Below are positions 19,772 to 61,200 of a stretch of 64,000 nt of DNA, in pieces (within the stretch, counting starts at the first letter, position 1; every line of letters begins with the position of its first letter). The translations under genes and the position numbers were made by a program. The notes beneath the pieces are model-generated. The model saw only the letters and a program-made list of their open reading frames with translations. It made no database searches and had not been told where the DNA came from. This DNA is from Cytophagales bacterium (lineage in GTDB: Bacteria > Bacteroidota > Bacteroidia > Cytophagales > UBA9547): contig JAAFIH010000027.1 in the NCBI GenBank assembly GCA_013297755.1, positions 3,666 to 67,665 on the forward strand, given 5' to 3'.

Positions 19772-19819
19772 GGTAGGTTGGTAGGTTGGTAGATTGGTAG
19801 ATTGATAGATTGGTAGAAA
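19772..19819. repeat. Octamer microsatellite (GGTAGRTT) x6
   Basis: The run reads ggtaggtt ggtaggtt ggtagatt ggtagatt gatagatt ggtagaaa directly. Confidence 0.9.
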
Positions 19820-19897: not shown

Positions 19898-20150
19898 AAA
19901 AAATTGCTATAAACGCAATTTTCCCCTTCGGGTTCTACTCATGGAGTAGAATTTGTTGGGGTGGGGCTTTTAAAAAATTGCTATAAACGCAATTTTCCCC
20001 TTCGGGTTCTACGCATGGAGTAGAATTTGTTGGGGTGGGGCTTTTAAAAATTGCTATAAACGCAATTTTCCCCTTCGGGTTCTACGCATGGAGTAGAATT
20101 TGTTTGGGGTGGGGCTTTTAAAAAATTGCTATAAACGCAATTTTCCCTTT
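19898..20150 (+). repeat. Tandem array of a ~74-bp structured unit (3 full copies plus a divergent 4th)
   Basis: The unit is aaaaaattgctataaacgcaattttccccttcgggttctacKcatggagtagaatttgttggggtggggctttt. Copies start at 19898, 19972, 20046 and 20120. Confidence 0.9.
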
Positions 20151-20169
20151 CGGGGGTTTGGGGGCAAAA

Positions 20170-20310
20170 AAAAATAAAAAAAAATCCTATTTCCCCCTCC
20201 CTATGGGATGAGGGGGTAGGGAGTGGGGCTTTTAGAATGGTAGGTTCTAGTTGGGCAGGGGCTTTTAAATCCGCTTTTAAACCCCTCGGGGTTAGGTTGG
20301 GGTTTTTGAA
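20170..20310 (+). repeat. Further GC-rich hairpin words (CCCCCTCCC...GAGGGGG type) ending in GGGGCTTTT
   Basis: The region reads aatcctatttccccctccctatgggatgagggggtagggagtggggctttt, followed by ...gggcaggggctttt and cccctcggggttaggttggggttttt. Confidence 0.8.
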
Positions 20311-23500: not shown

Positions 23501-26500
23501 TATGAATACAGCAACACCAATACTTGTTATAATACTACAGAGTTGTTGGGATTTGAAACGACCGAAGCATCTGGTCAAGTGGGTACTTTTTTGAGACCAG
23601 GAGATATGGTAATAGCAGGATATGATCCATTAACTACACTGGCTGGTATATCAGGAGATGATTATTTTGTTATGTTAACTATGGTAGATTTACTTCCTGG
23701 TACACAATTTATTATTGCCAATGCCCCTTTTGAAACAGGACTTGCTGCAAATGTATCATCAGGTGAGTTTGGTGAAAGTTGTACAGGATGTCAGTTATCT
23801 CACTTTAATCTTACAGTTGGGGGTACTACTATACCAAAAGGCTCAGTTATTTCTTTGGTAGCACCAAATGCTGCCGCTGCGCAACCAACTCAATTTAAGA
23901 TTAATGACATTTCAACTTCAAATATTAATGGAACTTATTATGGAGACCCTACATTAGGAAGAATGAATATAAGTTCATCTGCTGCAGACCAAGTATTTTT
24001 AATGCAAGGCAATTTTACAAACAATGCTTCTGCTAGTGTAGTTAGTTCAACTTTTAATGGTAGAGTATTGTATGGTATCAATAATGGTGCATCTTGGATA
24101 CCTTTTTCTACTGCAACTACCAGTGCAGCTCGAAATAAATCTAGACTACCAAAAGATATTCTTTGTTTTAATTTAGATGTTACTGGTTCATTTGTACAGG
24201 CCAAACAGCATAATGTTGGCAATGTTGGAGTACTCATAAATGCTACCCAAAGAAACTTAATCATAAACATCAGTAATCAATCTAATTGGGCAAATAAAGG
24301 TACTGGAGGTGGAAATGACTTAGATTTTACATCTGTTTTTTCTCCAAATAATGGCTACACAGTTACTGGTTCATCATTTCAGCCTGGCAGATGGATTGGG
24401 GACTTTAATAACGATTGGTTTAATTGTAGCAACTGGGAAAATTTAAGTGTACCAGACAATACAACAGATGTAGATTTTGATGCAAATTCCCTTGTTCGTT
24501 CAGATATTAGGTCTACAGCTACAAATGCACCAGTTTTTAATAACCTTGCCACTTGCAAAAACCTTTCCATCTCCAACCGAGAAGTAAATCTTGAAGGTAG
24601 TGCTAACAACAAACTTTTTGTAAACGGCAACATTATCATCAATGGCACTGGTACTTTAGACATGAGCGATGGCACCAATGGCACTCCAGATGGCCAAATA
24701 ACCATTGCTGGCTCTTGGCTCAACCAACGTGCAGAATCTGAATTTAAAGAAGGCGAAGGCAAAATAACTTTTACCAGCAACCAATCGCAAGGCATTATCA
24801 ACAGTACCTCCGACAACGAAACTTTTTATGATGTAGAAATCAACAACACAGGCACCGAATTTGCTTTAAACTCAAATCTGGCAACAGGACGTAATTTAGT
24901 CATAAATACAGGCAATATCAACGCCATCAACAAAACCGTAAAAATAGGTGGCGATTTTACCAACAACGGCACACTCACGGCCACTGGCAGCACTTTTGAG
25001 TTTAATGGCACTGGCATCCAAAACATCAATGGTACTTTTCAAAATACTTTCAACAACATGGTAGTTTCCAACCCATCGAGCGGGGGAGTGATATTGGGGC
25101 AAAACCAAAACCTTACAAACAAACTGTCGCTTACTGGCACATCTAGTAAATTGACAACAACTGGTCGCCAATTTACATTTTTGTCAGATGCCAATGCTAC
25201 TGCACGTTTGGCTCAAGTCAATGGCACATCTACCATTGTAGGCAATATTACCATGCAACGCTATGTGCCAGGCAATGACAATGTGCGCTTAATCAATTAT
25301 CAATTGGCTTCGCCTGTGCGTGGAGCAGCCGTAAGCCAATGGCAGCCTAGTGGCAACACACCACCCACAGCACCTACCAATGGTTTTTATATTTCGGGTA
25401 GTTTTACAGGCAAAGATGTGCCAGCTAGCACAGGTATTATAGCAGCTTCTTTGGCCAGTTTGCTTACTTACAATACTACTGGTGCAGGTTTTGATCAATT
25501 TCCTTTGGCAGCCAATACCGAAGCATTGAGCGTAGGTCGAGGATACAGAGGGGTTATCAGAGATGGTACAGCCGCCAATGGATTTGCCTCAGTAGTAGCC
25601 AAAACTTTGGCTCTTACAGGCCCACCACACATAGGAAATTTTAGTTTTTCTTTGGCTTTTGGTGGTAGCAATACCCTTACATCTTGGAATTTTGTGGGCA
25701 ACCCATACCCTTGTGAGATTTTTGGCGACCTTACCAATGCAACTCATTATCCTACTCGTACCAATGTCAATCCTGCAGTGTATGTATTCAATTCAGTCAT
25801 GGGTGGGTACAACTCTTATGTAAGTGGTGTAGGTGTATTAGCAGGCGGTGGAGCTTGGGATGGCAAAATACCTTCTTCACAAGGATTTTGGGTTCGAGCC
25901 AATGCTGCCAACCCTGCTCTTACAGTGTCTGAAAATGCCAAAACGGAAGGCCGATCTGCCAGTTGGAGAATCGAAAAACCTCAATTTTACAGAGTAATGC
26001 TAAACAATAGCTTTGGTGCAGACGAAGTTGTGGTGCGACTTTCTGACCAAGCCAGTTATGGTTTTGATGGAGAAATGGATGCCCAAAAATTAAACTCTCC
26101 ACTAAGTAATGGTGCTCCTAGTATCAATTTTACATCAAAAGAGGCCCTAAAACTGACCATCAATAGCATACCCACAGAAGCCATACAGCCTTTTGATACT
26201 GTATGGATAAACTATAGTTCTGGCCAAAGAAATGCCAATAATTTTACTTTTTATGGCTTCGAAAATTTTGATCCAAACGTGGAAGTGTATTTGATTGATA
26301 AAGCCAAAAATGAAATCTCTGATATGAAAAAAATAAATGATTATAGTTTTGATAACATCACATACGCGGGCAATAGATTTGGTATTGTCCACAAAACTAC
26401 ACAACGAGTAGAGGAGGTTACAGCTACTAAAAATAACCAAAAAGAGGGAGTTTTGATTACACTTCAACCAAATCCATGTCAAAATCATCAATTTCAATTA

Positions 26501-26692
26501 CAATCAAATGTAGCGATAGAAACAAATCAAATTAAGATTTACAACATTGTAGGCACTCAAATTCCTTTTGATGTAGCAAATATTGGTGCAAATAAGTATC
26601 AAATTAATTTATCTAATGCCACCAAAGGAATTTTAGTAGTAAAAATAACAACAGCTGAAGCTATTATTATTAAAAAAGTAATTGCTGAATAA
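20528..26692 (+). CDS. Giant (2054 aa) T9SS-secreted surface protein with multiple FN3/Ig-like modules
   Basis: It has a signal peptide. FN3-like modules repeat (ATLNWTRGNGNNVLVVVRP, GTIGWTRGNGSNVAVVLRQ, LKIDWTRGNGDNVIVLARA). The module TPTATAI.P.SATLGANVTSDGGA.ITARGTVW is duplicated. The CTD is LQPNPCQNHQFQL...GILVVKITTAEAIIIKKVIAE. Confidence 0.85.
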   Translation: MTTFYKNNIKFLGFIFVLFMLLGVKKSWGQAILTFDFAGLVGNEASANSNFNNTNLTSSTISRGGGLTAANNTDRFNATNWAITSIANAVSGNNYMEFTITPNSGFQFSVSSIVIQLQRSGTGHTAIALRNSVSSYSTNLDGEKSVVDNTNTQSFTFTFTQSNSSTSVTYRLYGYAEATGGSGGPGDGSGNDIVVNGIVSAISSCTPPTTQATASAATSIATTSATLNWTRGNGNNVLVVVRPNATSNALPTNGTSYTQNANYGSGATTGTNNFSVFTGTGTSVNVSGLTANTLYTQQVYEYNNTGICYLTTPATGQNFNSLHNAPNIGSGSGATGTTFTANWTAPSGGGGASFTYEIQVNDDNTFTNANEFTQSGIVSGTLSANATGLTPSTTYYYRVRAVNAGGNSAWSAVSAGIATTNAASLPTLTTPTATAIAPTSATLGANVTSDGGATITARGTVWSTSPIPTTNASSIGGTTGVFTDNRTGFSPNTLYYYRGYATNSVGTAYSPESSFTTLAISSPTVTTPTATAITATTATLGANVTSDGGAAITARGTVWGTSPNPTGNIVNTAGTTGIFTEPRSGFSPNTLYYYRGFATNSQGTSYSPDGTFTTPAAAVSIWTNPITGTNPGLTTPYIAGQTVNANISVSGILRGSGVTGANANDRYNASGWSSGALDANDYFEFTIVPNAGYKIDFTSFQYTSQLSSGTAQHTFKSSVDNFSASIGAPSSNGTTINLGAPSYQNITSAITFRFYTHNLTGLNYSINDFTFNGLVSVNCTPPTVAPNTPTSSAITPNSGTIGWTRGNGSNVAVVLRQGAAISTNPTSGVSYTPNAAFGSGASIGSGSVVYTGAGTNVNVTNLLSSTTYHYAIYEYSNTNICYNQSPLIGSFTTSACVAPTTQASAFTSSVLGTSSLKIDWTRGNGDNVIVLARAGATVNATPQSGNNSYTDNSTFGSGSQIGAGNFVVYKGTGSSVNITGLAANTTYYFAVYEYSNTNTCYNTTELLGFETTEASGQVGTFLRPGDMVIAGYDPLTTLAGISGDDYFVMLTMVDLLPGTQFIIANAPFETGLAANVSSGEFGESCTGCQLSHFNLTVGGTTIPKGSVISLVAPNAAAAQPTQFKINDISTSNINGTYYGDPTLGRMNISSSAADQVFLMQGNFTNNASASVVSSTFNGRVLYGINNGASWIPFSTATTSAARNKSRLPKDILCFNLDVTGSFVQAKQHNVGNVGVLINATQRNLIINISNQSNWANKGTGGGNDLDFTSVFSPNNGYTVTGSSFQPGRWIGDFNNDWFNCSNWENLSVPDNTTDVDFDANSLVRSDIRSTATNAPVFNNLATCKNLSISNREVNLEGSANNKLFVNGNIIINGTGTLDMSDGTNGTPDGQITIAGSWLNQRAESEFKEGEGKITFTSNQSQGIINSTSDNETFYDVEINNTGTEFALNSNLATGRNLVINTGNINAINKTVKIGGDFTNNGTLTATGSTFEFNGTGIQNINGTFQNTFNNMVVSNPSSGGVILGQNQNLTNKLSLTGTSSKLTTTGRQFTFLSDANATARLAQVNGTSTIVGNITMQRYVPGNDNVRLINYQLASPVRGAAVSQWQPSGNTPPTAPTNGFYISGSFTGKDVPASTGIIAASLASLLTYNTTGAGFDQFPLAANTEALSVGRGYRGVIRDGTAANGFASVVAKTLALTGPPHIGNFSFSLAFGGSNTLTSWNFVGNPYPCEIFGDLTNATHYPTRTNVNPAVYVFNSVMGGYNSYVSGVGVLAGGGAWDGKIPSSQGFWVRANAANPALTVSENAKTEGRSASWRIEKPQFYRVMLNNSFGADEVVVRLSDQASYGFDGEMDAQKLNSPLSNGAPSINFTSKEALKLTINSIPTEAIQPFDTVWINYSSGQRNANNFTFYGFENFDPNVEVYLIDKAKNEISDMKKINDYSFDNITYAGNRFGIVHKTTQRVEEVTATKNNQKEGVLITLQPNPCQNHQFQLQSNVAIETNQIKIYNIVGTQIPFDVANIGANKYQINLSNATKGILVVKITTAEAIIIKKVIAE

Positions 26693-26732
26693 TATTTTAG
26701 ACATAACCTAGCACCTATTTACTAAGAAAAAA

Positions 26733-27011
26733 ATGAAAAATTTTAAATTCCTATTTACAAAAGTATTTTTGATACTTTCCCTTGTTGTAGTAAGTTTATC
26801 CAATGCTCAAGAATCATGTGTGCCAAATAGCTTGGATGGTCCATGTCCAGACCCTTGCAACAGAATGTGTTGCGAGTACGACCCAGATAATGACACCTGT
26901 ATCCCTATCAATTCAGACAAAAATTACTTAATCATTCTTGGCATTTGTATGATTGGAGCAGTGTGGTTTATTACCTATAAATCTCAGAAAAAAATCGCTA
27001 TTTTGGAGTAA
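26733..27011 (+). CDS. Small Cys-rich secreted protein with C-terminal membrane anchor
   Basis: 92 aa. The signal peptide is MKNFKFLFTKVFLILSLVVVSLSNA. Seven Cys fall within ~31 residues (CVPNSLDGPCPDPCNRMCCEYDPDNDTC). This is followed by a TM helix (LIILGICMIGAVWFI) and a basic tail. Confidence 0.45.
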   Translation: MKNFKFLFTKVFLILSLVVVSLSNAQESCVPNSLDGPCPDPCNRMCCEYDPDNDTCIPINSDKNYLIILGICMIGAVWFITYKSQKKIAILE

Positions 27012-27228
27012 TTAGATTTAAAAGTAGTATAAATCGTTATAATAAAATATAACTTTAAAAATAATATTTTAAGAAATAATAGCTTCAAAAGTTCCTATCT
27101 TTTGGATTCTTTGGCTTAATAACAGAAATTGGGGTGGGGCTTAAAAAACAGGCTTTATTTTAATAAAATCTTAAATGTGCCTGCATTTCTTTTTAATAAG
27201 ATTTTTAAATTTTCAAATAAATTTATTG

Positions 27229-27236
27229 TATATTTG
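27229..27236 (+). promoter_or_regulatory. Bacteroidota -7 promoter box TAnnTTTG
   Basis: TATATTTG ends 20 nt upstream of the ATG at 27256. An identical box with identical spacing occurs in copy B (39377-39384). Confidence 0.4.
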
Positions 27237-27255
27237 TCTACATAATTCTAAAATC

Positions 27256-27498
27256 ATGGCACAAGTAGCAACACTAAAAATCCAAACTAATAATACTGGT
27301 TCACAAACCAATACGAATTTAGATTTTAAAAAAAACGATAAAATTACTTTTTCTGAAACATCGTTAAACCAAAAAACAGAGGAAGACCTCGAAAGAGAAG
27401 CGTTTTATAAAAAAATTAATAATCCCTCAAATTTGACAGGAGACGAATTATTTGCTCGTGTAAACAAACATATTGATTCGTTGCCATGGCAAGCATAA
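27256..27498 (+). CDS. Small putative antitoxin-like protein (81 aa), family not recognised
   Basis: I prefer ATG 27256 (MAQVATLKIQ...) because conservation with copy B begins just upstream. The track start at 27175 lies in unconserved promoter sequence. The N-half is Q/T/N-rich and the C-half is helical (EEDLEREAF...GDELFARVNKHIDSLPWQA). It overlaps the next ORF by 13 nt. Confidence 0.5.
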   Translation: MAQVATLKIQTNNTGSQTNTNLDFKKNDKITFSETSLNQKTEEDLEREAFYKKINNPSNLTGDELFARVNKHIDSLPWQA

Positions 27499-27815
27499 TT
27501 TATTCTGAAAAACTAGAATATAAACTAAATGAATTGGTAGATATTTTATTTGAAAAAAGATATTTTGGTTATAAAGAATCCGCAAAAGAATATGTACAAC
27601 TTATTAGAAATTTTATAGAAACCATCCCAAACCAAACCATAGTATATGTTTGCTCAAAACCTACGTATGGCAAATATTATGCTAGATACACCAATAAAAA
27701 AAGTAAGTTTAAATATTATATAACCTATGATTCAATGGATGGAATATATTACATAGAAAATATTATAAGTCCCAAAACAAAAGCCTATTTAGACATCAGT
27801 GGCTCGAAAAAATAA
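27486..27815 (+). CDS. Putative RelE/ParE-superfamily-like toxin (109 aa)
   Basis: Size and predicted topology fit ParE-like toxins: two N-terminal helices (KLNELVDILFEKRYFGYKESAKEYVQLIRNFIETIP) followed by beta strands (YYARYTNKKSKFKYYITYDSMDGIYYIENIIS). It is translationally coupled to a small upstream ORF. The assignment is by pattern only. Confidence 0.4.
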   Translation: MASIIYSEKLEYKLNELVDILFEKRYFGYKESAKEYVQLIRNFIETIPNQTIVYVCSKPTYGKYYARYTNKKSKFKYYITYDSMDGIYYIENIISPKTKAYLDISGSKK

Positions 27816-27953
27816 AGAATACAAAGTAATATTTTTTAGAATAAATAATTAGAAGCTACCACATTAAACTCAAACCCTAAAAGTTTAGGTAATAGATAAT
27901 TTCATTTTTTTCAAAAGCTCTTGGGTTTGTTTATTGATTTCAGTAATTACACT

Positions 27954-28166
27954 TTAGGTATGGTTGTATCTTATTTTTTTGATAGACTTTAGATGGTTTA
28001 TTGTGTCTGAGATGGAGTATTTATGGCTTAGTTTTTGGGTTTTATTTAATCGTGTTGTTTTTAGTATTTTAGATAATTTATAAATCATTAGCATGCTCAA
28101 GTGATTGATAAACATCCAACCATTGAGTGATTCTTCACGCTGCATGCTTGAAATTTGCTCTTCCAT
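27954..28166 (-). pseudogene. C-terminal remnant of an IS4/IS1634-type transposase
   Basis: ...REESLNGWMFINHLSMLMIYKLSKILK... resembles the conserved C-terminal end of DDE IS4/IS1634 transposases as I recall them. Only ~70 codons remain and there is no upstream catalytic region. Confidence 0.45.
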
Positions 28167-28612
28167 TGTTTTTAAAATTTAATTTATTATAGTTTAATAG
28201 AAAATTATTTATTTAGTAATAATTACATAAAATAATATAAAATTATCTCATTTATTTCTTTGTGGTAAGCTGCCATTTTAAACAATGATTCATCCTCTAT
28301 CTCATCGTCTTCAAAATCAATTGAGTCATAAAACTTAGAATACTCTTCTATTGTGATTTTATTAAGGTCTGCTATTAAAAGACACGTCTAATCTTGGTGT
28401 GCATCCAAAGCTTGTGATATATCTAAAAAAGTAAGCTTAATACATAGTTGTAAGTAAAACTTCATCTTTTTTATCTGGGACAAGATTGTTGTCGAGTAAT
28501 ATTTAGTTGATTGTCATTTTTTTTTATTTGTTGAATTAAATTTAAGAAAATTCATTTAAAATATTTTTTTTGTCTATTTTTTTAGTATAAATTGATATTG
28601 AAGTTGAAATTT

Positions 28613-29095
28613 TTAATGCCAAACGAAATAAATAAATCCATTTAAAGTGCCTTCTTTAGAGTTATTTTCAAAGTCTTGTTTGTCAATCAAGCAATAAAAT
28701 GTCTCCATTTTATTCCATAAGTTAAATCCAAGCATATCATCTGTTATACCAAGTGGACTTAAAAATTTTCGATCAGAGTTCATAAAATTGCCTGCATTTA
28801 TTTCACCAGAATCGCAATCGTCTATTTTCAAATTAAGCAATTCAGTTATATCTGAATCATCATAAAAATTAAAATCTGCTATTAGATTATACCATTGTCC
28901 ACCAATACCTAGATCCTTAACTAAAACAGATATTTTTTTTATTGATAATAAATTAGTACCAATTTGTGGAAAAAAAGTATAGGGGCTAAAATTTTGATTT
29001 AAATCAATAACTTCATCAAAGATGACTTTAGAGGCATTATGATGTAATTTTATTTTTTCGACTGCTTCTTGAAAAGGTATTTTAATATAATTCAT
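28613..29095 (-). CDS. Hypothetical cytoplasmic protein (160 aa), immunity-protein-like orphan
   Basis: It is a clean ORF with no signal peptide and is acidic. No motif was recognised. It is a member of the minus-strand run of small orphans. Confidence 0.5.
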   Translation of the reverse strand: MNYIKIPFQEAVEKIKLHHNASKVIFDEVIDLNQNFSPYTFFPQIGTNLLSIKKISVLVKDLGIGGQWYNLIADFNFYDDSDITELLNLKIDDCDSGEINAGNFMNSDRKFLSPLGITDDMLGFNLWNKMETFYCLIDKQDFENNSKEGTLNGFIYFVWH

Positions 29096-29225
29096 TGTTA
29101 TATGGTTTATTATTGTAAAATTAATAAAATTATAAATTTATTTGTAAATCTTAACCAAAAAATAAACTAGTATCTTGATTCTTTGGGTAAGTATTTTTTT
29201 ATGATTTAAAACTAAAGAAATCTAG

Positions 29226-29462
29226 TTATAGTACTCCAAAATTATCTTCATATTTGTGTAAACATTCATGTTTATTCTTCTCACCACCAAAGTATTGCTT
29301 ATCAATAAATATTTTTTTTATCAATAATTCAAAAAACACTCTATTATTTAAGGTTGAGTCTATTATGATATCTTTTAAAACATATTTTTTGTTAACGAAA
29401 TATGTAGGGTAAGAATTCATACTAATGAAAATAATATAAAGTACTCCAAAAATTATCTTCAT
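29226..29462 (-). pseudogene. Truncated tandem duplicate of the C-terminus of 29422..29949
   Basis: YVLKDIIIDSTLNNRVFFELLIKKIFIDKQYFGGEKNKHECLHKYEDNFGVL aligns with YVLRDYIIDTSINERVFLELFVKKAFIDKKYFGTKGQNECLGKYEDNFW of the upstream gene. The DNA of ~29226-29415 parallels ~29422-29610. Confidence 0.55.
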
Positions 29463-29949
29463 ATTTACCTAAACACTCATTTTGTCCTTTAGTACCAAAG
29501 TATTTTTTATCTATAAAAGCTTTTTTTACAAATAATTCTAAAAATACCCTTTCATTTATTGATGTGTCTATTATATAATCTCTCAATACATAAATGTTTT
29601 TATTAAATTGACTATAGATTAAATACATTTCACCAACTATATCACTATTTATTAATTTTTTTTTATTCAATTTTTCAATAGATACATGTATCTCTCCATA
29701 ATCTGCTGGACCATAATCTACAAAATATTGAGCTAGATTTGTTGAAAATATAATTAATTCATCCTGTGTATGATTAGACAAATCTAATTTTGAGTAATAC
29801 TCGCTAGAAATCAAGGTTGTACATATTAAAGAGTCATATATTACTTCTGCAAACGATATATATTCTTTATTATATGTATCAAATGTATCTAATTTTTCTA
29901 GATTTGAGTCTTCTATTTTTTTAATTTCTAATAATTCGATAACGTTCAT
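29422..29949 (-). CDS. Hypothetical cytoplasmic protein (175 aa), immunity-protein-like orphan
   Basis: It is a clean ORF with no signal peptide. It has a partial paralogue immediately downstream. Confidence 0.55.
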   Translation of the reverse strand: MNVIELLEIKKIEDSNLEKLDTFDTYNKEYISFAEVIYDSLICTTLISSEYYSKLDLSNHTQDELIIFSTNLAQYFVDYGPADYGEIHVSIEKLNKKKLINSDIVGEMYLIYSQFNKNIYVLRDYIIDTSINERVFLELFVKKAFIDKKYFGTKGQNECLGKYEDNFWSTLYYFH

Positions 29950-29969
29950 TTGTTGGAAATTTAAAGTGG

Positions 29970-30299
29970 TTAAAATTGATTAATTAATATACCTTTAACT
30001 AAGTAATATTTATCTAAAATATTCATTTTCAAGGTATTATATTTTTTATTCGCTTTTAATTGGTAATATTTTCCGAAAATCGAATTAATATTTTTGCGTT
30101 CCTCTTCAGTAAGTTTGTGCTTAATCTTTTCATACCTTATTTCAAAAGAGTTTATCTGTCTATCATATTCTTCCCAAGTTGTTTCGTCAGCCGAAAGCTG
30201 ATTGTATTCAACAGTTTGTATAAATTTTTTTAACTCTTTAATAAAGCTAAACTCTTGTTGAAAATTTAGTAATAAAATAATAAATAATAATGTTTTCAT
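29970..30299 (-). CDS. Small secreted helical protein (109 aa)
   Basis: It has an N-terminal hydrophobic leader, MKTLLFIILLLNF. The rest is charged and helical (EEYDRQINSFEIRYEKIKHKLTEEERKNI). Confidence 0.5.
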   Translation of the reverse strand: MKTLLFIILLLNFQQEFSFIKELKKFIQTVEYNQLSADETTWEEYDRQINSFEIRYEKIKHKLTEEERKNINSIFGKYYQLKANKKYNTLKMNILDKYYLVKGILINQF

Positions 30300-30322
30300 G
30301 GATTTTTTTATTAATGTTTAAA

Positions 30323-30353
30323 AATTGTCCCCTGGTATTACCAGGGGACAATT
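30323..30353 (-). terminator. Intrinsic terminator (13-bp perfect stem) for 30358..30819
   Basis: aattgtcccctgg-tatta-ccaggggacaatt. On the minus strand it is followed by TTTT. It sits 5 nt downstream of the stop at 30358. Confidence 0.75.
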
Positions 30354-30357
30354 TGAT

Positions 30358-30819
30358 TTATTTGAATAATGTTAAACCAAAGACAGAAGCTGCCATTGGT
30401 TTAATGATAGGTTTCAGATATGTTTTGAAAATATATATAGAGGGGTGTTCAAATTTGAACAATTTTTTATTAGATTCATGAAGGCATCTTTCAAGATCTA
30501 CAATACGTGATAAATACACATCGTTTTTGGCTCTTGATAAAACATAAGAAATTTGAAAGGCTTTAGGCCTATTTTTTATTGTTTCTGCTGAAATTTGATA
30601 AACATTAGTAAGTTTAGTTAGTTCAGATTCAGTTATATATTGTAATTCATTTAGTAATAAATCACAATTAAACTTAGGTTCTATTTCATATTTTATCATT
30701 CCTTGAATAGTCCTTTTGGCAAGAAATAATATTAGAGGAGGTTCTAAATCTTGAGTCACAAATCGTAAGATGTTGGAATCAATTGTGTCAATCATTTTTT
30801 CTAATTCTGCAACTTTCAT
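30358..30819 (-). CDS. Hypothetical protein (153 aa)
   Basis: It is a clean ORF followed by a strong terminator. No motif was recognised. Confidence 0.55.
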   Translation of the reverse strand: MKVAELEKMIDTIDSNILRFVTQDLEPPLILFLAKRTIQGMIKYEIEPKFNCDLLLNELQYITESELTKLTNVYQISAETIKNRPKAFQISYVLSRAKNDVYLSRIVDLERCLHESNKKLFKFEHPSIYIFKTYLKPIIKPMAASVFGLTLFK

Positions 30820-31155
30820 AATTAAATTGTTTTAACAGATGAATAATAATTTAGAAAAGAGCACAGGGACAATGTCTTCCCCGTGCTATAAATAGGCATC
30901 ATGCAAAACATGAGCTTATCTTTAGATATAAAAATAAAAATCAAAATTTCAAAGAACTTCTGAAGCATCGTTTGCTTCTGGTGTATAGTAGATATTTTTA
31001 TCAAAAAGTAAACCAAATTTTTATTTTTGCCTTTTGATGATACAAAGTTGTTGTAATATTTTAAAAATAAAAAATTGTTATTTAATTATTTTTTAACCTC
31101 AATTATTACTTTAAATTATATTCTTCAAATTTATCTTTCAATATTAGGACAGAAA

Positions 31156-31187
31156 ATGAGGTCTTAATTTTAGGTCTCATTTTTTTT
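31156..31187 (+). terminator. Terminator-like hairpin in the 5' leader of the ECF operon (possible attenuator)
   Basis: atgaggtct-taatttt-aggtctcat forms a 9-bp stem including 2 G-U pairs, followed by T7. It lies 63 nt upstream of ATG 31250, with no plus-strand gene upstream to terminate. Confidence 0.5.
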
Positions 31188-31249
31188 AATAGTTGATTAT
31201 TTTTTTTTAATTTAATTTTTAACATTTGTAAAAATTAAATAAAATTCAA

Positions 31250-31855
31250 ATGAGCAATTTAGATTCAAATCAAAAATCCAATATGTTGGCACTTGCATTT
31301 ATACCTTTAGCAATAGCTATTAATGTAGGTATTGGAGCAATTGTCAAAGCACTTAATTTACCCTTGTATGTAGATTCCATTGGAACAATTATTGCTACTA
31401 TTTTACTTGGGTGGAAAAGAGGTGCTATAGTTGGTGTTTTAGGGTTTGTACTTACCTCAATTATTATTAATCCTTTTGCTATTTATTTTTGTGGCACACA
31501 ATTAGTCATTGCCTTATTGACACATTTTGTTGGCAAAAAAGAAATGTTTAGCAACTTGTTTAAAACAATATTAAGTGGAATTGGCTTAGGTATTGTTTCA
31601 GCCATTGTAAGTGCTCCCATAATTGTTTATCTTTTTCAAGGTGCTACAGGTAATGGAGCATCATTAGTTACATCTTTCTTTGTTAAAATGGGAAATCAAA
31701 TTGTTAATTCAGTTTTATTAAGTGGATTTTCTATTGAACCAATCGACAAAGTTATTCAGTGTATATTAGCCTTTTTAGTTATCAAAGGAATACCAAAAAA
31801 TTTATTAGAAAATTTTAAAGGGGGTAGTTTAAAAGAAAATAATTTTTTAAATTAA
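31250..31855 (+). CDS. ECF-transporter S-component-like 6-TM protein
   Basis: 201 aa with six hydrophobic helices. The motif LPLYVDSIGTIIATILLGWKRGAIVGVLG is of the kind seen in ECF substrate-capture subunits. EcfT- and EcfA-like genes follow directly. Confidence 0.6.
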   Translation: MSNLDSNQKSNMLALAFIPLAIAINVGIGAIVKALNLPLYVDSIGTIIATILLGWKRGAIVGVLGFVLTSIIINPFAIYFCGTQLVIALLTHFVGKKEMFSNLFKTILSGIGLGIVSAIVSAPIIVYLFQGATGNGASLVTSFFVKMGNQIVNSVLLSGFSIEPIDKVIQCILAFLVIKGIPKNLLENFKGGSLKENNFLN

Positions 31856-32577
31856 TGGAGAACAAAAATTATTATATACATCCATTTGTAAGAATTACTT
31901 TTTTGCTTTGTGCATTCACAGGTTCGATATTATGTGATAATGTTTTAATAGTTTTTGCATTTTACTTGACTATAATAGTTCCATTATTTTTTTTACAGAA
32001 TAAAATCTTTACACATCTTAAATTTCTGTTATTGGGTGTTGTTCCAATATTCTTGTCTTTTATACTGCTTAATATTATTGTACTTCAAAGTAAAAGTGGA
32101 GGATGGGAATATATTTTTGAAAGAGTTTTACGGCTTACAGTTTATGCAAGTATATTTCAAATTGTATTAACAATACCAGCAAACGATTTATTTAATACAT
32201 TTAAAAAGTGGGGGTTAAAAGGAGAAAGTTTAGTAACTGTAATTAGTGCATTTGCAGTATGGAGTGAAATTACTAATAGGGCTGATAAAATAGTAACTGC
32301 AAGATTATCTAAAGGGTATGTTAAGAGAAGAAATATTTTTAGTATGGCCATGCAATTCCCTTATACATTGAATCCTTTAATTATTGGAGTTATAAGAACT
32401 GCTGTAGAAAGGGCAGATAGTTGGCACAATAAAAATATTTTGAACTTGATTGATAATTATATAGGTACTGAAAATAAATATAACTTGATTTTAAATACTG
32501 TAATTGTCATTATTAGTATCTCTTATTTGTGTGTTATACTTTTTTTAGTTTTGACTAAATACAATTTTGCACTATGA
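31855..32577 (+). CDS. ECF transporter T component (CbiQ/EcfT-like)
   Basis: 240 aa and multi-TM. The coupling-helix-like Ala-Arg motifs are KIVTARLSKGY and VIRTAVERADSW. The start shares the upstream stop (TAATG). Confidence 0.6.
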   Translation: MENKNYYIHPFVRITFLLCAFTGSILCDNVLIVFAFYLTIIVPLFFLQNKIFTHLKFLLLGVVPIFLSFILLNIIVLQSKSGGWEYIFERVLRLTVYASIFQIVLTIPANDLFNTFKKWGLKGESLVTVISAFAVWSEITNRADKIVTARLSKGYVKRRNIFSMAMQFPYTLNPLIIGVIRTAVERADSWHNKNILNLIDNYIGTENKYNLILNTVIVIISISYLCVILFLVLTKYNFAL

Positions 32578-39963: not shown

Positions 39964-40422
39964 TGAATACATCATTAGTCTACCAATGATAAACTTGATT
40001 CCAATGAAGACCTTTCTTTTGGATTTTAAATTATTATAATAGAATTTTGATTGGAGCTCATTTAAAACTATAATCAATATCTTCACCCTTTTGATGGTAT
40101 TAGCACACACTCAAATGATATACATTAAATAATTGTTAAGTTTAAAGAAACTACAATGGTTAATATTTAATGTTTTAATAACCTCACAAATCGATTGTTT
40201 ACTATTTTTATATCTAAGTTTGTACCATGATTCTATAATAAAAAAAAAATACCCAGTGTTTCAATCTTGTAGATTTGAGAAAAATCATCTTTTTTAAAAA
40301 ATCAATTAGATTTTAAATGCAATTATTTGAAAAAATGTATTTTATTTGATAATTCAATTTATTCTTGATGCATAAATATTAAAAAAATACATTTTAATGT
40401 CAATAGAATATAAATTTTAATA

Positions 40423-41754: not shown

Positions 41755-43856
41755 TGCCTTTAAAAATTGCCTTTTTTCTTTTATTTTTTAATATATTGGC
41801 CTTTACTCAGTCATTTTATGCTGAAAAAAAAACCAGTAAGTCAAATATAGAAACAACCATAAGCAATTTAGGCCTTATTGGTAATTCGTTTCGTGGAAGC
41901 TATCAATCTCAAAGTTGGGGATCGTTGGAGTTTCCTGCCAAATCTAACATAGAACATGCTTTTTTGGGTGGCCTTTGGATAGGTGCTATCATCAATGGAG
42001 GCGTTACGGCCGTAAGTACTGGGGCTGTTGGTTCGGCCAATGGCTATAGTACTGGTGCATCTGGGTACGAATTTACGGCTCCATTGGGTTCTACTTTGCA
42101 AACAAAATCACGACTACAAGACGACCCTTTTTATGACCCCAAAGCGGTTTCTCATCAAGATTTTATAGGCAATTTTACTGATAGCAATGTATTTATACCA
42201 GGCTCACCACAACGAATTGTTGGCCACGAAAACCCATTGAAAGTGTCTGTAAAATTCGAATCTTATAATTGGAATAGCTCATCTGCCAACTTTTTTATTC
42301 CTCTCAAATTTGTAATTAAAAATACAGGAAAAAATGTATTGTCAGATGTATGTGTGGGTTATTGGGCCGATTTTGTCATTCGCAACGTATCGCAATATCC
42401 ACCAGGTGGCACACCTTTTTTCTCTTCTGGTCGCAATGGATTTATTGATTCTTTGGCAATGGCTTATGAATGGGATGGCGAAACCTCAGTGCCAAATGCT
42501 CAGAGTTATGCTGGATTGATGTATTTGGGTGCTGTCGATAAAAATGGCGTTGTTCGTTATCCAAATACTATCACAAGTCCAGAGATTAAAACAAATTATA
42601 ACACTTGGACTTTTAATGGAGCAGACAATAATTTTGGAGTTCCTATTTCAGATTTTGATAAATATGCCCGATTAAAAGAAGGACAAAATCAAAGATCTAC
42701 TTGGGCAAATACCCAAAATTTGATACGCCAAAACGGCAATCGCTCTAATCTCATTTCTGCTGGGCCTTTTGCCACACTCAATCCAGGTGATGAAATGGAA
42801 ATTATGTTTGCAGTCGTTTGTGGCTCTACGATAGAAGATGGAGCTAAACATCCATCAGAAAATACGCCTTTGCAAATATCTCAATTTATAAAAAATGCTA
42901 ACGATGCACGCACATCCTATGCAGGTGAAGACAAAAACCGAAATGGTATCCTCGATTTGGGTGAAGACATCAATCTAAATGGAAAAATCGATCGCTTGAT
43001 TTTCCCAGAACCACCTGCTACTCCCAAAACAAAATTTATAGTTGGCGATGGCAAAATAGATATGTATTGGACCAATAACTCTGTTATTTCTAGAGACCCT
43101 GTAACCCAAAAATTAGATTTTGAAGGATTTAGAATTTATCGCACCCAACTTGCTTATGATATGCAAAAAAGCGTTGACATAGACAAAAGCCTCAAATTGA
43201 TACGATCTTACGACAAAACTGATAATATTTTCTTTTTAAATAACGGCTTTTCTGAAATAGAGTTAAAAGAACCCATCACTTTTGAGGGCGACCCCAATGT
43301 GTATTATTATAAATATACTTTCAATAACATGGCCAGTGGTTGGCAACATGCCATAGCACTTACAGCCTTTGATTCAGGCGATACACTACTGAATGTGGCA
43401 CCTCAAGAATCATCAAAATTAGAAAACATATTTCGTATTTTTCCAGGCAAACCAGCCAATGGAAGTATCCAATCAAACGAGCCTTATGTTTATCCAAACC
43501 CATACTATGGCATAGCCAGTTGGGAGGGCTCAAGCAATTTTGAAGAATCTAAAAAATTAATTTTTGCAAATTTACCCAAACGATGCACCATAAAAATATA
43601 TACCCTAGCAGGCGATTTGATAGACACCATCAACCATGACGAAAATTACAATGGCTCAGATATGGCCTCAAAAAGCCCTCAAGGTTGGTTTACCATTTAT
43701 TCTGATACCGAAAAAAATATATTTTCAGGTGGCGAACACGCTTGGTCGCTGATGTCGGCCAACTCTCAAATCATTGCACGTGGATTTTATATTTTCAATG
43801 TAGAAGACACCAAAACTGGTGAAACCTTTGTAGGGAAATTTACAGTAATCAAATAA
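41754..43856 (+). CDS. Secreted 700-aa protein with Ca-binding-like D/N loop, FN3-like and C-terminal FlgD-Ig-like domain
   Basis: The start overlaps the EEP stop (TAATG). It has a signal peptide. The D/N loop is DKNRNGILDLGEDINLNGKID and the FN3-like segment is KIDMYWTNN...FEGFRIYRT. The C-terminus is CTIKIYTLAGDLI...GFYIFNVEDTKTGETFVGKFTVIK. Confidence 0.6.
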   Translation: MPLKIAFFLLFFNILAFTQSFYAEKKTSKSNIETTISNLGLIGNSFRGSYQSQSWGSLEFPAKSNIEHAFLGGLWIGAIINGGVTAVSTGAVGSANGYSTGASGYEFTAPLGSTLQTKSRLQDDPFYDPKAVSHQDFIGNFTDSNVFIPGSPQRIVGHENPLKVSVKFESYNWNSSSANFFIPLKFVIKNTGKNVLSDVCVGYWADFVIRNVSQYPPGGTPFFSSGRNGFIDSLAMAYEWDGETSVPNAQSYAGLMYLGAVDKNGVVRYPNTITSPEIKTNYNTWTFNGADNNFGVPISDFDKYARLKEGQNQRSTWANTQNLIRQNGNRSNLISAGPFATLNPGDEMEIMFAVVCGSTIEDGAKHPSENTPLQISQFIKNANDARTSYAGEDKNRNGILDLGEDINLNGKIDRLIFPEPPATPKTKFIVGDGKIDMYWTNNSVISRDPVTQKLDFEGFRIYRTQLAYDMQKSVDIDKSLKLIRSYDKTDNIFFLNNGFSEIELKEPITFEGDPNVYYYKYTFNNMASGWQHAIALTAFDSGDTLLNVAPQESSKLENIFRIFPGKPANGSIQSNEPYVYPNPYYGIASWEGSSNFEESKKLIFANLPKRCTIKIYTLAGDLIDTINHDENYNGSDMASKSPQGWFTIYSDTEKNIFSGGEHAWSLMSANSQIIARGFYIFNVEDTKTGETFVGKFTVIK

Positions 43857-44157
43857 TTGAGAATTGAGAATTGAGAATTGAGAATAATATTAATTAATTA
43901 TAATGAACAAACAAAAAACGGGAGTAAGCCTAAAAAATTAAAAAAATCCGCTTTCAAGTCCCCTTCGGGGATTTAGGGGCTTTAAAAATTAAAAAAATCC
44001 ACTCTAGCCCCTCCCTTTTATGGGGTTCTACGCATGGAGTAGAATTTGTTGGGGTGGGGGCAAATATAGTCCTTATAATTCCTCCTTCGGGGGCTAGTAG
44101 GCTTTTATGAATTGAACCATTAATAATTAACCATTAACCATTAACCATTAAAAACAG
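43857..44157 (+). repeat. Mosaic intergenic repeat array (heptamers + GC hairpin words)
   Basis: (TTGAGAA)x4 starts directly at the stop codon. It is followed by gtaagcctaaaaaattaaaaaaatccgctttcaagtccccttcggggatttaggggcttt and then cccctcccttttatggggttctacgcatggagtagaatttgttggggtggggg. cctccttcggggg comes next, and (AACCATT)x4-5 ends 9 nt before ATG 44158. Confidence 0.9.
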
Positions 44158-46644: not shown

Positions 46645-47040
46645 TACATTAAAAAAATCCATTTCAAGCCCCTCCCTTTTATGGGGAGTGGTTGGGGTGG
46701 GGTTTTTATTATTCTTTAAAATAAAAAATGTGTAAGCATAAAAAATTACAAAAAGTCCATTTTAAGTCCCTCCCCTTGGGGTTCTGCGAAATCGTAGCAG
46801 AATTTGTTAGGGTGGGGTTATAAATCAGCTCAAGCCCCTTGTCCTTTGAGAAGGGTTTGGGTGAGGCTTTTGAAATAATACAACATATCTTTTCTTTAAA
46901 AGAAAGGATATGTTTAATCTAAATTTATAATTTTTAAAATCTTATGAATCATTTAATCATAAAAATCAAAGTTTAGACAATTTAAAAACTCCGCTTTCAA
47001 GTCCCCTTCGGGGGTTTGGGGGCTTTTAAACACACAAACA
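46645..47040 (+). repeat. Mosaic intergenic repeat array (GC hairpin words)
   Basis: At least four words are present. The first two are cccctcccttttatggggagtggttggggtggggttttt and tccctccccttggggttctgcgaaatcgtagcagaatttgttagggtggggtt. The last two are gccccttgtcctttgagaagggtttgggtgaggctttt and tccccttcgggggtttgggggctttt. Confidence 0.9.
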
Positions 47041-52474: not shown

Positions 52475-53265
52475 TTGATTATTGATTATTGATTATTGAT
52501 TATTGATTATTGATTATTGATTATTAATTAAAATTCGTGCATTCGTGGCTTTATAAATGCGTTAGCTAATCCCCCTTCGGGGGTTTGGGGGCTTTTATTC
52601 AGAGGGCTTGGGGGCTTTTAAAAAAAACCTATTTCCCCCCCTCTTTTTTGGAGAGGTGGGGCAGGGGGGTGAGGCTTAAATATTGCGTTAGCATTAAAAA
52701 TAAAAAAAAATCCTATTTCCCCCTCCATAAGGAATGAGGGGGCAGTGGGTGGGGCTTTTTTAAGAATTGAGAATTGAGAATTGAGAATTGAGAATTGATT
52801 ATTGATTAAAATTCGTGCTAAGTGGCGATAAAATTGCTAATATCGCAATTTCCCCTTCGGGGGTTTGGGGGCTTTAAAAAATTAAAAAAAATCCTATTTC
52901 CCCCCTCCCTATGGGATGAGGGGGCAGGGGGTGGGGCTTTTTTAAGAATTAAGAATTGAGAATTGAGAATTGATTATTGATTAAAATTCGTGCATTCGTG
53001 GCTTTATAAATGCGTTAGCTAAGCCCCCTTCGGGGGTTTGGGGGCTTTTAAAAAAATCCTATTTCCTCCTCCATAAGGAATGAGGGGGCAGTGGGTGGGG
53101 CTTTTTTAAGAATTGAGAATTGAGAATTGAGAATTGAGAATTGATTATTGATTAAAATTCGTGCTAAGTGGCGATAAAATTGCTAATATCGCAATTTCCC
53201 CTTCAGGGGTTTGGGGGCTTTTATTCAGAGGGTTTGGGGGCTTTTAAAAACTAAAAAAATATAAA
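52475..53265 (+). repeat. ~790-bp higher-order mosaic repeat array
   Basis: (TTGATTA)x7 sits at the stop codon. Modules then alternate between two variants: X1 (aaattcgtgcattcgtggctttataaatgcgttagctaa) and X2 (aaattcgtgctaagtggcgataaaattgctaatatcgcaattt). Each is followed by ccccttcgggggtttgggggctttt, then tcctatttccccctcc...gagggggcagtgggtggggctttttt, then (GAGAATT)x3-5 GATTATTGATT. Confidence 0.9.
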
Positions 53266-53266
53266 T

Positions 53267-57600: not shown

Positions 57601-60600
57601 ACTTTGCAAGGAAACTTTCCTACCATTATTTCTGGTAATATCATCAATATAACAGTTCCTTTTGGCACAAATCTTTTAAATCTATCAGCAACAGGTGTTA
57701 ATTCTCCTTTTTCTACCGTAAATCCTAGTTTTGCTTCTATGCTTAATTATAGCAATTCTCAATCATTTACAGTTACGGCCCAAAATTTGTCTACCAATAT
57801 ATATAGTGTATCAATTACAACTATTCCTCCCTCTTCGGCCAATAAAATTACTGGTTTCACTATTGCAGGTGTTTCAGCCATGATTAATGGCAATATTATT
57901 AATGTAACTTTACCCAATGGTACAATGGTCAATAGCATATCAGCCAAGGGCATTAATGATGCTCTATCTACCGTTAGTCCAAGTTTTGCTACACTACTCG
58001 ATTATAACTTTCCACAAACTTTCACTGTTACAGCCCAAAATATGGCTACCAATGTGTATACAGTTCAAGTTGCTGTATCCTCATCTTTATCTGCAGCAAA
58101 TTCTATTACTGGCTTCACTTTGCAAGGCAATTATAATGGAGTTATTTCTGGTAATATAATTAATGTTACAGTTCCATTTGGTACAAACCTTGCATCTTTA
58201 TCAGCTACTGGCACAAACTCTTTGGTTTCAACCGTTAGTCCAAGTTTTGCCACTTTGCTTAATTATACCACTACACAAACATTTACTGTTACTGCCCAAA
58301 ATATGGCTACCAATGTGTATACAATTCAAGTGGCCGTTTTGTCTGCATCATCAGCCAATTCCATTTCTGGTTTTACATTAGCAGGTTCGCAAGCTATCAT
58401 TTCTGGAAACATTATCAATGTTACAGTTCCATTTGGTACAAACCTTACAGCTTTATCAGCCACTGGCACAAACTCTTTGGTTTCAACCGTAAGTCCAAGT
58501 TTTGCTACTTTGCTAAATTATAACACTGCACAAACATTTACAGTTACTGCCCAAAATATGGCTACCAATGTTTTTACAGTTCAAGTGGCAATAGCACCAG
58601 GTTCGGCTTCCAATTCCATTACAGGTTTTACATTAGCAGGTTCGCAAGCTATCATTTCTGGAAACATAATCAATGTTACAGTTCCTTTTGGTACAAACCT
58701 TACCTCTTTGTCAGCCACTGGTGTCAATTCTTTAGCTTCTACCGTCAATCCAAGTTTTGCTACTTTGATAAATTATAACACTGCACAAACATTTACAGTT
58801 ACTGCCCAAAATATGGCTACCAATGTTTTTACAGTTCAAGTGGCAATAGCACCAAGCATAACTGGAGGTTCATTGAATCAAACAGTTGCTTTTAGTGAAA
58901 ATTTTGGAACCGTAACTGGTACAGGTTCTATAGCTTCTTTCAATGGATGGCAAAATCAAAGTGTTATATTTAGTTCTATATCAGGTGTTAATCCTGTTTC
59001 AGTAATAGGAGTAGGAAATATTACTACCTCAGTAGCTCCTGATAAAAGAAGTACATTTCCTTCCTCAGGATATTCTTTTGCTTCTGCCATATCAAATATT
59101 TATTTTGGGCCTGTAACTTCTGATGCTAGAACTTTTTTTATGTCAAATATTAACACAAGCACAATTTTAGGAAATGTCGGTTTTAGATTTGGATACACTA
59201 GAAATTCTGCTACAATAGATGATTTAAGAATAGCTTACAGTACTGATAATGTAAATTATACAGAAGTAACATATACTTCAACTTCTGTTACTGGTTGGCA
59301 GGTAATAACTATTCCAAACAATACTTTACCAAAATCAAGCACCTTATCTTTAATGTTTTTTAAAACTTCAACTGCAAGTATTCAACATAGAATTGATGAT
59401 GTTCAAATTTTAGATGTTCCAATAGCTAATATTTCCTCAGCCAATTCCATTACTGGTTTCCAATTGGCAGGTATTCCAGCTGTTATTTCTGGTAATATTA
59501 TCAATGTTACAGTTCCTTTTGGCACAAATCTTACATCTTTATCAGCCACAGGTTCTATTTCTCCTTTAGCTAACGTAAACCCAAGTTTTGCTACATTATT
59601 AGATTACAGCACCGCTAAAACATTTACTGTTACAGCCCAAAACTTAGCTACCAATGTATATACCGTAAATGCAGTTGTGTCTGCTACCTTGTCAGATGCC
59701 AATTCAATCACTGGCTTTACTTTACAAGGAGGGTATCAGGCTACTATCAATGGAAACATGATTAATCTTACAGTTCCATTTGGCACAAATCTTAGCTCAT
59801 TATCTGCCACAGGTACAAACTCGTTGGTATCAACCGTAAACCCAAGTTTTGCCACTTTGCTTAATTATAGTACTGCACAAACATTTACTGTTACAGCCCA
59901 AAATTTAGCCACCAATGTGTATACTGTAAACGTAACCATAGCTGCAAGTGTGTCAGGTGTGGTAGTACCTTACTTGTCGTTATCTACGCTTAGAGCTTCG
60001 CTCAACGCCAGTGGAATAACCACCATTACAGGTCAATTTACAACTTCTGGACAAATATATGGTATCAATGCCTTTACTACTGGCCAACAATTTAGTTTAA
60101 TAGATGCTACAGGAGCTATAACTTTAAGAACATCCCTTACAACTCCAGCCATGAAAGAAGGCGATATAGTTACCATTACTGGCGGCTTTGGAGGTACAGG
60201 AAATTCTTACGGAAATTTCAATGGACTTCAACAAGTAACCAACATTACCAGTATTACTATTGGCTCAAGTAACAATCCAAGAAAATCTCCAACTTTAGTT
60301 TCAGAACTTACCGAATCTTTAGAATCTGATTTTGTCTCAGTTGTTGCCAACATCAATCGTGCCTCATGGATAGATGCTCCAATTACACCAACATTAACTT
60401 TATCTGGGTTTACAGTTATAATGACTGTAAATGGTGTAGTTACGCAACTAAGAATTTCAAACATGAATACCGAAATATATGGTAAAACATTTGAAGAATT
60501 GTTTGATACCAATACAGATGCCATGAACGTAACCATTTCTGGTTTAGTCGGTCAGTTTCAACGATCTTCGGTTTCAAATGTTACTGTTGGTGGTGTTGTC

Positions 60601-60940: not shown

Positions 60941-60972
60941 AAGCCCTTTCATTTTGGAAGGGCTTTTTTTTA
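60941..60972 (+). terminator. Intrinsic terminator of the 2089-aa gene
   Basis: aagccctt-tcattttgg-aagggctt is followed by a T-run, 20 nt after the stop. Confidence 0.7.
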
Positions 60973-61200
60973 TTTTTTTTATAGAAAAGCCTATTTAGTT
61001 ATTCGGAGAGTTTAAAAGCAATTTTGTAATATTTTTTACAAATAAAAAGTCCCTCCCCTTGGATTCTGCTCAAAACGGTGTAGGAACACGCCTTTTGGCG
61101 TGTTCTTTTGGCGTGCTCTTTTGGCTCCCTTGTTCAAATTCCGAGTGTTTGCCAAATAATTCATCCAATTTTGGCAAATCTTTTTCCGTACATTCTCTAA

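Follow-up and report, generated by a model that had tools for sequence, protein, structure and literature searches.

A repeated GC-rich hairpin word in a Cytophagales-like chromosome as the probable core of a 119-bp miniature inverted-repeat transposable element

Genes of the window and copies of the hairpin word

The DNA analysed here (in the following, the window) is a stretch of 64,000 nucleotides from Cytophagales bacterium (GenBank assembly GCA_013297755.1, contig JAAFIH010000027.1), and the feature under study is a short GC-rich hairpin word, W, whose flagged copy lies at 46767–46819 on the plus strand. With a probability that we put at roughly 0.7, W is the two-tier central hairpin of a 119-bp non-coding transposable element of the miniature inverted-repeat type (MITE) from a Cytophagales-like lineage, of which stripped-down, terminator-like copies stand behind genes. 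The window consists of chromosomal Bacteroidota DNA (24–41% GC) and encodes PBP1A, YebC, a receptor of the TonB-dependent type, a PorV-like protein, and proteins of very large size that bear type IX secretion tails; a scan for tRNA and tmRNA genes found none. Its YebC is 83% identical to that of the metagenome-assembled genome (MAG) RDZG01 (“Bacteroidetes bacterium PH2015_06S_32_163”) and ~63% identical to that of Pontibacter, pointing to an uncultured Cytophagales-like lineage.

The word copies listed in an initial annotation of the window were read in the sequence, and each was found at its site (six sites), with the stem variants TTCTGT/ACAGAA, TTCTAC/GTAGAA, and TTCTGC/GCAGAA as claimed there. 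What the copies share is a C-rich arm followed by TTGG or TTCG, the inner stem TTCTnn/nnAGAA, a linker rich in T, and GGGGTGGGG. In the flagged copy, these parts are the C-arm TCCCTCCCC, the inner hairpin TTCTGC-gaaatcgta-GCAGAA, the linker TTTGTTA, and the G-arm GGGTGGGG; the leader common to the family begins at about 46745, and for the RNA a two-tier hairpin was predicted, with a folding energy of −23.1 kcal/mol (z = −2.9). The remaining copies also lie on the plus strand. The copy at 7857–7910 (inner stem TTCTGT/ACAGAA) is the core of an intact element, whereas three cores with TTCTAC/GTAGAA (19921–19971, 19995–20045, and 20068–20119) belong to a tandem array at 19881–20154 with a 74-bp unit in 3.7 copies (Tandem Repeats Finder, 97% matches), each unit combining a small AT hairpin with a W core whose 5′ arm is CCCCTTCGGG. 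The copy at 44008–44060 has the same stem and the loop gcatgga, as in two of these three array copies, and no U-tail. A degenerate copy at 27092–27142 (TTCTTT/ACAGAA, one stem mismatch; fold z = −0.3) retained its G-arm, while its C-arm has decayed into T-rich sequence. The copy at 61050–61070 is truncated, ending after TTCTGC. Adjoining it, at 61071–61125, are a strong hairpin of unrelated sequence (GGAACACGCC-TTTT-GGCGTGTTC) and 2.6 copies of a 13-nt tandem repeat (CTTTTGGCGTGCT), which may belong to another repeat family.

A covariance model (R1) was built on 50 distinct copies, and the window was scanned with filters off. This yielded 13 matches with E < 0.05, all on the plus strand, among them the flagged copy (46750–46827, E = 6e-15), the degenerate copy (E = 2e-11), and four of the simpler B modules described below (E = 1e-6 to 0.05). 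Three additions were made to the initial annotation: two eroded copies, one at 11376–11485 and the other an AT-rich core relic at 39992–40066 (plus strand, E = 9e-4), and the complete element that encloses the copy at 7.87 kb. The inventory of the window thus comprises one intact element, two that are eroded, and seven cores that lack terminal repeats, including the truncated one; all of these are intergenic. Chance does not account for these numbers: the pattern TTCT-N-AGAAWTTG was matched nine times vs 1.0 expected (none of 100 shuffles reached nine), and GGGGTGGGG with at most one mismatch was matched 23 times vs 3.55 expected.

The 119-bp element and its central hairpin

A pattern consisting of the inner stem plus the G-arm was searched in 185,579 species genomes, giving 95 loci, of which ~60 were chance matches in unrelated phyla and were discarded on inspection. 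The MAG REAG01 (Cytophagales bacterium PH2015_03D_30_9) contained 29 exact pattern matches in 28 stretches and 42 nhmmer matches, 41 of them intergenic according to simple ORF (open reading frame) calls, and RDZG01 contributed two loci. Both MAGs come from Eel River cyanobacterial mats (PMC6776057). A metagenome scan with a stricter pattern returned eight loci, with a single real new copy, seen in two samples (L107, L109). The other six are the coding motif LLRVLQEKEFERVGG, which we take to belong to sigma-54 activators. Three matches on viral contigs were due to chance (the one inspected had neither stem nor C-arm). The family is patchy even among close relatives: related contigs totalling 39 kb, of which 31 kb belong to the closest MAG, contained none.

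When the REAG01 copies were aligned with their flanks, the word turned out to lie at the exact centre of a near-perfect palindrome of 117–119 nt with terminal inverted repeats of ~22 bp (arms GGGAACTCCTAAAAACCTCAAT and ATTGGGGTTTTTAGAGGTTCCC). The consensus reads GGGAACTCCTAAAAACCTCAAT ... CCCTCCCAC-TTGGA-TTCTGC-loop-GCAGAA-ATTGGTTT-GGGTGGGG ... ATTGGGGTTTTTAGAGGTTCCC. One base outside GGAAC...GTTCC, exact 4-bp direct repeats (TTAA, TAAA, ATAA, TTAC, TTTT, AAAT) flank 12 of the 24 full copies, vs 2.3 expected when right flanks were permuted among copies (P < 0.0005), and the signal is confined to this length and this offset, with none at other offsets or lengths. Such repeats are the signature of a target-site duplication generated by transposition, which identifies the element as a MITE; it has no coding capacity, as 117–119 bp leave no room for an ORF, and its insertion sites are AT-rich intergenic DNA of which 4 bp were duplicated.

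The window holds one intact copy of 119 bp at 7823–7941 on the plus strand (nhmmer full-length match, E = 2e-24), whose arms, GGAACTTCTAAAAACCTCAA and TTGAGGTTTTTAGAAGTTCC, are perfect inverted repeats over 20 bp and which is flanked by the target-site duplication ATAA at 7819–7822 and 7942–7945; its predicted RNA fold reaches −47.2 kcal/mol (z = −6.3). The full-length copy at 11376–11485, likewise on the plus strand, is eroded (nhmmer E = 7e-10; covariance model 11383–11461, E = 5e-8) and sits between two minus-strand genes, i.e., opposed to local transcription. The flagged copy has neither terminal inverted repeats nor a target-site duplication, its match being limited to the core (model positions 13–87), with the common A-rich leader and sequence of no relation on its flanks; rather than an intact MITE, it is derived from, or related to, the MITE core. 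A plasmid BLAST with the consensus element gave no match. A comparison via YebC orthologues showed that gene order around yebC is not kept in the closest relatives, which therefore offered no orthologous empty site. The MITE is previously undescribed and adds to a known kind of bacterial repeat, not a new RNA gene or family; annotators should hence not call the word an RNA gene.

The hairpin itself is well conserved. In the 50-copy alignment, 81% of the cells pair in the two-tier hairpin vs 38–60% with the partners slid, and the covariation score was 0.204 vs 0.163 ± 0.008 in shuffles. At inner-stem pair 5, 42 copies have G-C, four A-U, and one G·U, while three are broken, and pair 6 is C-G in 42 copies, U-A in two, U·G in two, and broken in four. 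The double changes reported by the initial annotation are therefore real, yet they do not carry its argument that the structure is under selection. The four TTCTAC/GTAGAA copies amount to one event, because three are tandem duplicates and the 44.0 kb copy has the loop of two of them, so that about two independent compensatory events stand against seven pair-breaking single changes and three wobble intermediates. Wobble and mismatch intermediates were present among young REAG01 copies (TTCTGC/ACAGAA, TTCTGT/GCAGAA, and TTCTGC/GTAGAA). The paired changes fit maintenance of the foldback but are too few to prove selection on the structure, and template-switch correction within the palindrome would give the same pattern. 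The covariance model, which the initial annotation had proposed as a check, recovered the family in the window on the plus strand. The proposed comparison with Rfam produced no matching family: no match was obtained in the whole window at gathering thresholds, and at E ≤ 1 two intergenic regions returned chance-level mir-6134 and U6atac alone. A difference in substitutions between G-arm and C-arm was considered as a trace of RNA-level selection and rejected as biased, since the fetch pattern demanded GGGTGGGG.

Hairpin modules, mosaic arrays, and insertions in a relative

W forms part of a broader family of GC-hairpin modules, in which two simpler types, A and B, also occur. Type A (CCCC-TTCG-GGGG-TTT-GGGGG-CTTTT) is a UUCG-capped hairpin with G·U pairs and was found on the plus strand at 47003–47027 as well as at 20145–20165, ~43960–43986, 52571–52596, 52852–52875, 53024–53049, and 53198–53222. 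An A module on the minus strand (19706–19735) overlaps the stop codon of the plus-strand ORF 18742–19707 and is the sole reversed module in the window; the earlier statement that all G-rich ends lie on the plus strand consequently holds for the word copies, but not for this relative. Type B (CCCCTCCCC-loop-GGAGGGG-linker-GGGGTGGGG-CTTTT) has leader, C-arm, G-arm, and tail as in W and no inner hairpin. It occurs on the plus strand at 19862–19897 (CCCCTCCCC-TTGG-GGAGGGG-TT-GGGGTGGGG-CTTTT) and further at 20193–20233, 46669–46707, 52635–52677, 52719–52761, 52900–52943, and ~53066–53107. Common to W core copies, A, and B are an A-rich leader of ~45 nt (…AAAAAATCCGCTTTCAAG), the arm GGGGTGGGG, and a tail of CTTTT(A)n. 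Upon folding, the second G-arm of B modules pairs via G·U with the U-rich leader and lengthens one long hairpin; the idea that one C-arm and two G-arms act as a switch or triplex was dropped, as folding gives a single extended hairpin. Some B modules contain a putative G-quadruplex-forming motif (at least four runs of at least three G; e.g., GGGGAGGGGTTGGGGTGGGG at 19873–19892), which is not present in the W word with its two G runs.

W, A, and B modules have been shuffled and tandemly amplified into mosaic arrays just 3′ of plus-strand genes, together with heptamer microsatellites and small AT hairpins. The largest intergenic array (52475–53266, plus strand) consists of four composite units of ~160–290 bp, each with a heptamer microsatellite, a small AT hairpin, and an A module, the first three containing one or two B modules in addition. 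This array shows how the modules assemble into arrays resembling bacterial interspersed mosaic elements (BIMEs). The repeat family clearly illustrates how hairpin modules rich in GC are reshuffled, in a genome of ~30% GC, into BIME-like arrays that follow genes whose products are secreted or lie in the outer membrane.

Perfect heptamer or octamer microsatellites were observed at 19763–19817, 43855–43885, 44110–44151, 52475–52530, 52763–52798, 52945–52973, and 53109–53144, with the units (AATTGAG)n, (TTGATTA)8, (AGAATTG)5, (TGGTAGAT)7, and (AACCATT)5. They begin at or just after stop codons or are located just before start codons, head each unit of the mosaic arrays, and are reminiscent of the cyanobacterial heptamers known as STRR (short tandemly repeated repetitive sequences). 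Logan contigs from SRR9948931-34 (L001–L004), whose proteins are identical to those of the window, all stop just past the gene for the PorV-like protein. As this is where the 52.5–53.3 kb array begins, the repeats break short-read assemblies, and the family accounts for the assembly breaks at these intergenic regions.

Modules also occur inside a gene of a relative. At RDZG01 locus L084 (RDZG01000108.1, 1238–4795, minus strand), an ORF of 1185 aa for leucyl-tRNA synthetase (LeuRS) stays open through three GC-hairpin modules, one of them the W word in antisense, translated as KTPPLTNSASISQNHLGEGK. A DUF559 endonuclease-like domain (aa 610–716) is inserted in the same protein, bracketed by a B-type module and the W word. 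Relative to the Thermus thermophilus LeuRS 1h3n, the three modules and the domain are insertions (alignment gaps). Approximately 7 of 10 inspected DUF559 homologues from diverse Bacteroidota have SPPLGEG-type border peptides (SPPLGEG, SPPLGGTGG, SPPLEGLGEV, and RPPLTPPTGEN; proteins P0122–P0237), which correspond to translations of CCCCTCCCC…GGGGAGGGG hairpins. Several listed homologues are fusions of DUF559 to domains of other host proteins (Pfam: RNase H, alpha/beta hydrolase, a methionine-synthase domain); P0223 has its DUF559 domain within the alpha/beta hydrolase. These sequences suggest that DUF559 may be a mobile domain associated with GC hairpins. From the LeuRS case it is evident that the modules behave like the palindromic elements of Rickettsia (RPEs), as selfish insertions; the case also hints at a second mobility route. 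By tblastn against the window and all fetched loci, the DUF559 segment matched its own locus only, and no in-frame module copies inside ORFs were seen in the window.

Orientation, putative role at transcript ends, and competing explanations

All nine independent loci of the window lie on the plus strand (p = 0.004), and eight of them run in the same direction as the upstream gene (p = 0.039); the exception is the eroded copy at 11.4 kb. In 26 of 27 window modules, the plus strand folds more stably than the minus strand owing to G·U pairs. The string CCTTCGGG, corresponding to a C(UUCG)G tetraloop, occurs 10 times in the window vs 0.45 expected (nine on the plus strand), and GGGGCTTTT (GGGGCUUUU tails) occurs 16 times vs 0.82 expected (15 on the plus strand). 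The modules begin 24–150 nt past stop codons, and a canonical terminator of like build (AAAGCCC...GGGCTTTTTTTT) lies at 60943–60970. A hairpin followed by a U-run (CUUUU to CUUUUUU) is present in A, B, the W copies of the array, and the MITE, but not in W at 44.0, 46.8, and 27.1 kb. A simple terminator scan picked two A modules only; its rule of a loop of at most 8 nt misses two-tier hairpins.

Based on the strand-specific G·U pairs, the UUCG loops, the U-tails, and the terminator of like build, we infer that the long-lived window copies act as terminators or 3′-end stabilising hairpins for the upstream genes. The hairpin would persist because survival of the element depends on its foldback, and the copies that last would be those oriented such that a stable hairpin with G·U pairs and a following run of U's closes the upstream transcript. 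They may then serve as intrinsic terminators or 3′-end stabilisers in the manner of repetitive extragenic palindromes (REPs), BIMEs, and Correia elements, and the paired stem changes would reflect maintenance of the foldback and not a dedicated RNA gene. If true, this would be a compact case of a mobile element co-opted for the formation of transcript 3′ ends in Bacteroidota, a phylum in which terminators are less studied.

Several observations weigh against the interpretation as a MITE whose surviving copies end transcripts. A search of ~200 kb of REAG01 sequence for an autonomous partner bearing these terminal repeats found none: all terminal-repeat matches there were ~97 bp apart (none >100 bp) and hence represent the MITE itself, and no transposase was among the 20 window ORFs scanned. 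The majority of the window copies have neither terminal repeats nor duplications; these might be an older form that was later captured by the MITE. In REAG01, copies with terminal repeats have the orientation of the upstream gene in seven cases and the opposite one in 12 (p = 0.36; simple ORF calls), and partial or core-only copies in eight and seven cases, respectively. The 11.4 kb copy is antisense to both neighbouring genes, the W word in the LeuRS of RDZG01 is antisense inside an ORF, and the plus-strand bias of the window (9/9) could result from replication direction or local duplication and not from transcription. Several W copies have poor U-tails (GGGGGCAAAT at 44.0 kb, GGGGTTATAA at 46.8 kb). 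In addition, part of the G-arm conservation seen in the fetched loci was built in by the search pattern, which demanded GGGTGGGG.

The same evidence was used to weigh other explanations. It is unlikely that the copies are functionless, decaying relics whose paired changes arose by template-switch “quasipalindrome correction” during replication and not by selection. The 11.4, 27.1, and 40.0 kb copies are indeed visibly eroded towards AT, pair-breaking changes exceed compensated ones, and all intermediate kinds exist among the REAG01 copies; yet G·U rather than C·A on the plus strand is an asymmetry not expected under neutral decay, the same is true of the UUCG loops and U-tails, and the arrays 3′ of genes are amplified and well preserved. 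A dedicated structured non-coding or cis-regulatory RNA with a directly selected hairpin, as proposed by the initial annotation, is scarcely probable. The conserved hairpin with two compensatory changes, the strand-specific G·U pairs and UUCG loops, and the significant fold z-scores speak for it, but the word is no free-standing motif: it occupies the middle of a transposable element that has terminal inverted repeats and is flanked by target-site duplications. Furthermore, its association with genes is not constant, B modules occupy like positions without any inner hairpin, no Rfam family corresponds to it even at E ≤ 1, it is patchily distributed among close relatives, and one copy is antisense and in frame in LeuRS. 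The initial annotation had also named random orientation with respect to transcription as an argument against its own reading, and this is the orientation observed in REAG01, the genome with the most copies.

Three further alternatives concern how the modules move. Mobilisation as REP/BIME-type extragenic palindromes by a REP-associated tyrosine transposase (RAYT) via single-stranded DNA hairpins is quite improbable, although the modules are extragenic, GC-rich, imperfect palindromes that join other short motifs in mosaic arrays, many copies contain GTAG in the loop, and the strict one-strand bias of the window (9/9 loci) is of the kind typical of elements handled as single-stranded DNA (IS200/IS605, REP). 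In full copies there are terminal inverted repeats of 22 bp and duplications of 4 bp, neither of which is known to result from mobilisation by a Y1 transposase or RAYT; moreover, array modules are arranged head-to-tail and not in the inverted pairs typical of REPINs, and no Y1_Tnp domain was present among the 20 window ORFs scanned. Modules without terminal repeats might instead be ends or footprints of DUF559 (Vsr-like) endonuclease cassettes that spread with or through the nuclease, in keeping with the bracketed DUF559 insertion in the LeuRS of the closest MAG and with the module-like border peptides of most inspected Bacteroidota homologues. We regard this as very improbable, as there is no DUF559 sequence in the window or the other fetched loci, the link consists of one DNA locus plus peptide motifs, and the inverted repeats and duplications of the full-length element point to a different mechanism. 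A broader scheme for some Bacteroidota, in which W, A, and B form a modular, self-propagating “portable hairpin” system of ~40–60-nt cassettes that move through AT-rich genomes by a non-classical, possibly DUF559-linked route, are kept behind genes as terminators or stabilisers, are tolerated in frame in essential genes (LeuRS in the closest MAG), and use the MITE as one vehicle, which acquired the W cassette, is distinctly unlikely. The interpretation as a MITE with derived core copies is thus preferred.

As a MITE, the element resembles the Correia elements (CREE/NEMIS) of Neisseria and the BrickBuilt and MITE239-type elements of Porphyromonas gingivalis (PMC4596501) in being ~120 bp long, non-coding, multi-copy, and intergenic, with a long hairpin. 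With bacterial MITEs it further shares terminal inverted repeats, short AT-rich target-site duplications, and possible internal tandem repeats or a location near terminators. Correia elements affect transcript ends and duplicate TA, whereas the duplication observed here is 4 bp. Unlike described MITEs, to which no sequence similarity was found (plasmid BLAST, Rfam), the element has an unusually GC-rich two-tier hairpin core in a ~30% GC genome, and most window copies have lost, or never had, terminal repeats. REP/BIME of Enterobacteria and Pseudomonas are likewise GC-rich extragenic palindromes in mosaic arrays between genes or at operon ends, with a likely effect on mRNA 3′-end stability or termination; the differences are the inverted repeats and duplications of full copies, the head-to-tail modules, and the lack of a RAYT among the 20 window ORFs. 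RPEs also combine intergenic repeats with repeats in frame in essential genes (here the LeuRS gene at L084), but RPEs are not GC-rich islands, they belong to another taxon and have another sequence, and the in-frame case here is one locus outside the window. Yeast mitochondrial mobile GC clusters (PMC4478555) are short GC-rich palindromes in AT-rich intergenic DNA as well, mobile, sometimes tandem, and occasionally in frame, but eukaryotic, organellar, and unrelated in sequence. Finally, the modules resemble intrinsic terminators in their A-run, GC-rich stem, U-run, UUCG tetraloops, and position just past stop codons; unlike these, they are homologous repeats, often several in a row, their U-run is short (CUUUU) or missing in some, and their stems contain internal loops and a second hairpin.

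Two other features of the window were recorded. The low-GC stretch at ~26000–32000 (24–29% GC) contains eight small ORFs without Pfam match (26733–27011, 27175–27498, 27486–27815, 28613–29095, 29422–29949, 29970–30299, 30358–30819, and 31250–31855) and may be a foreign island. At 57970–58845, a 255-bp tandem repeat (3.4 copies, 85% identity) lies inside an ORF of 2089 aa with a type IX secretion tail and DUF5018 repeats.

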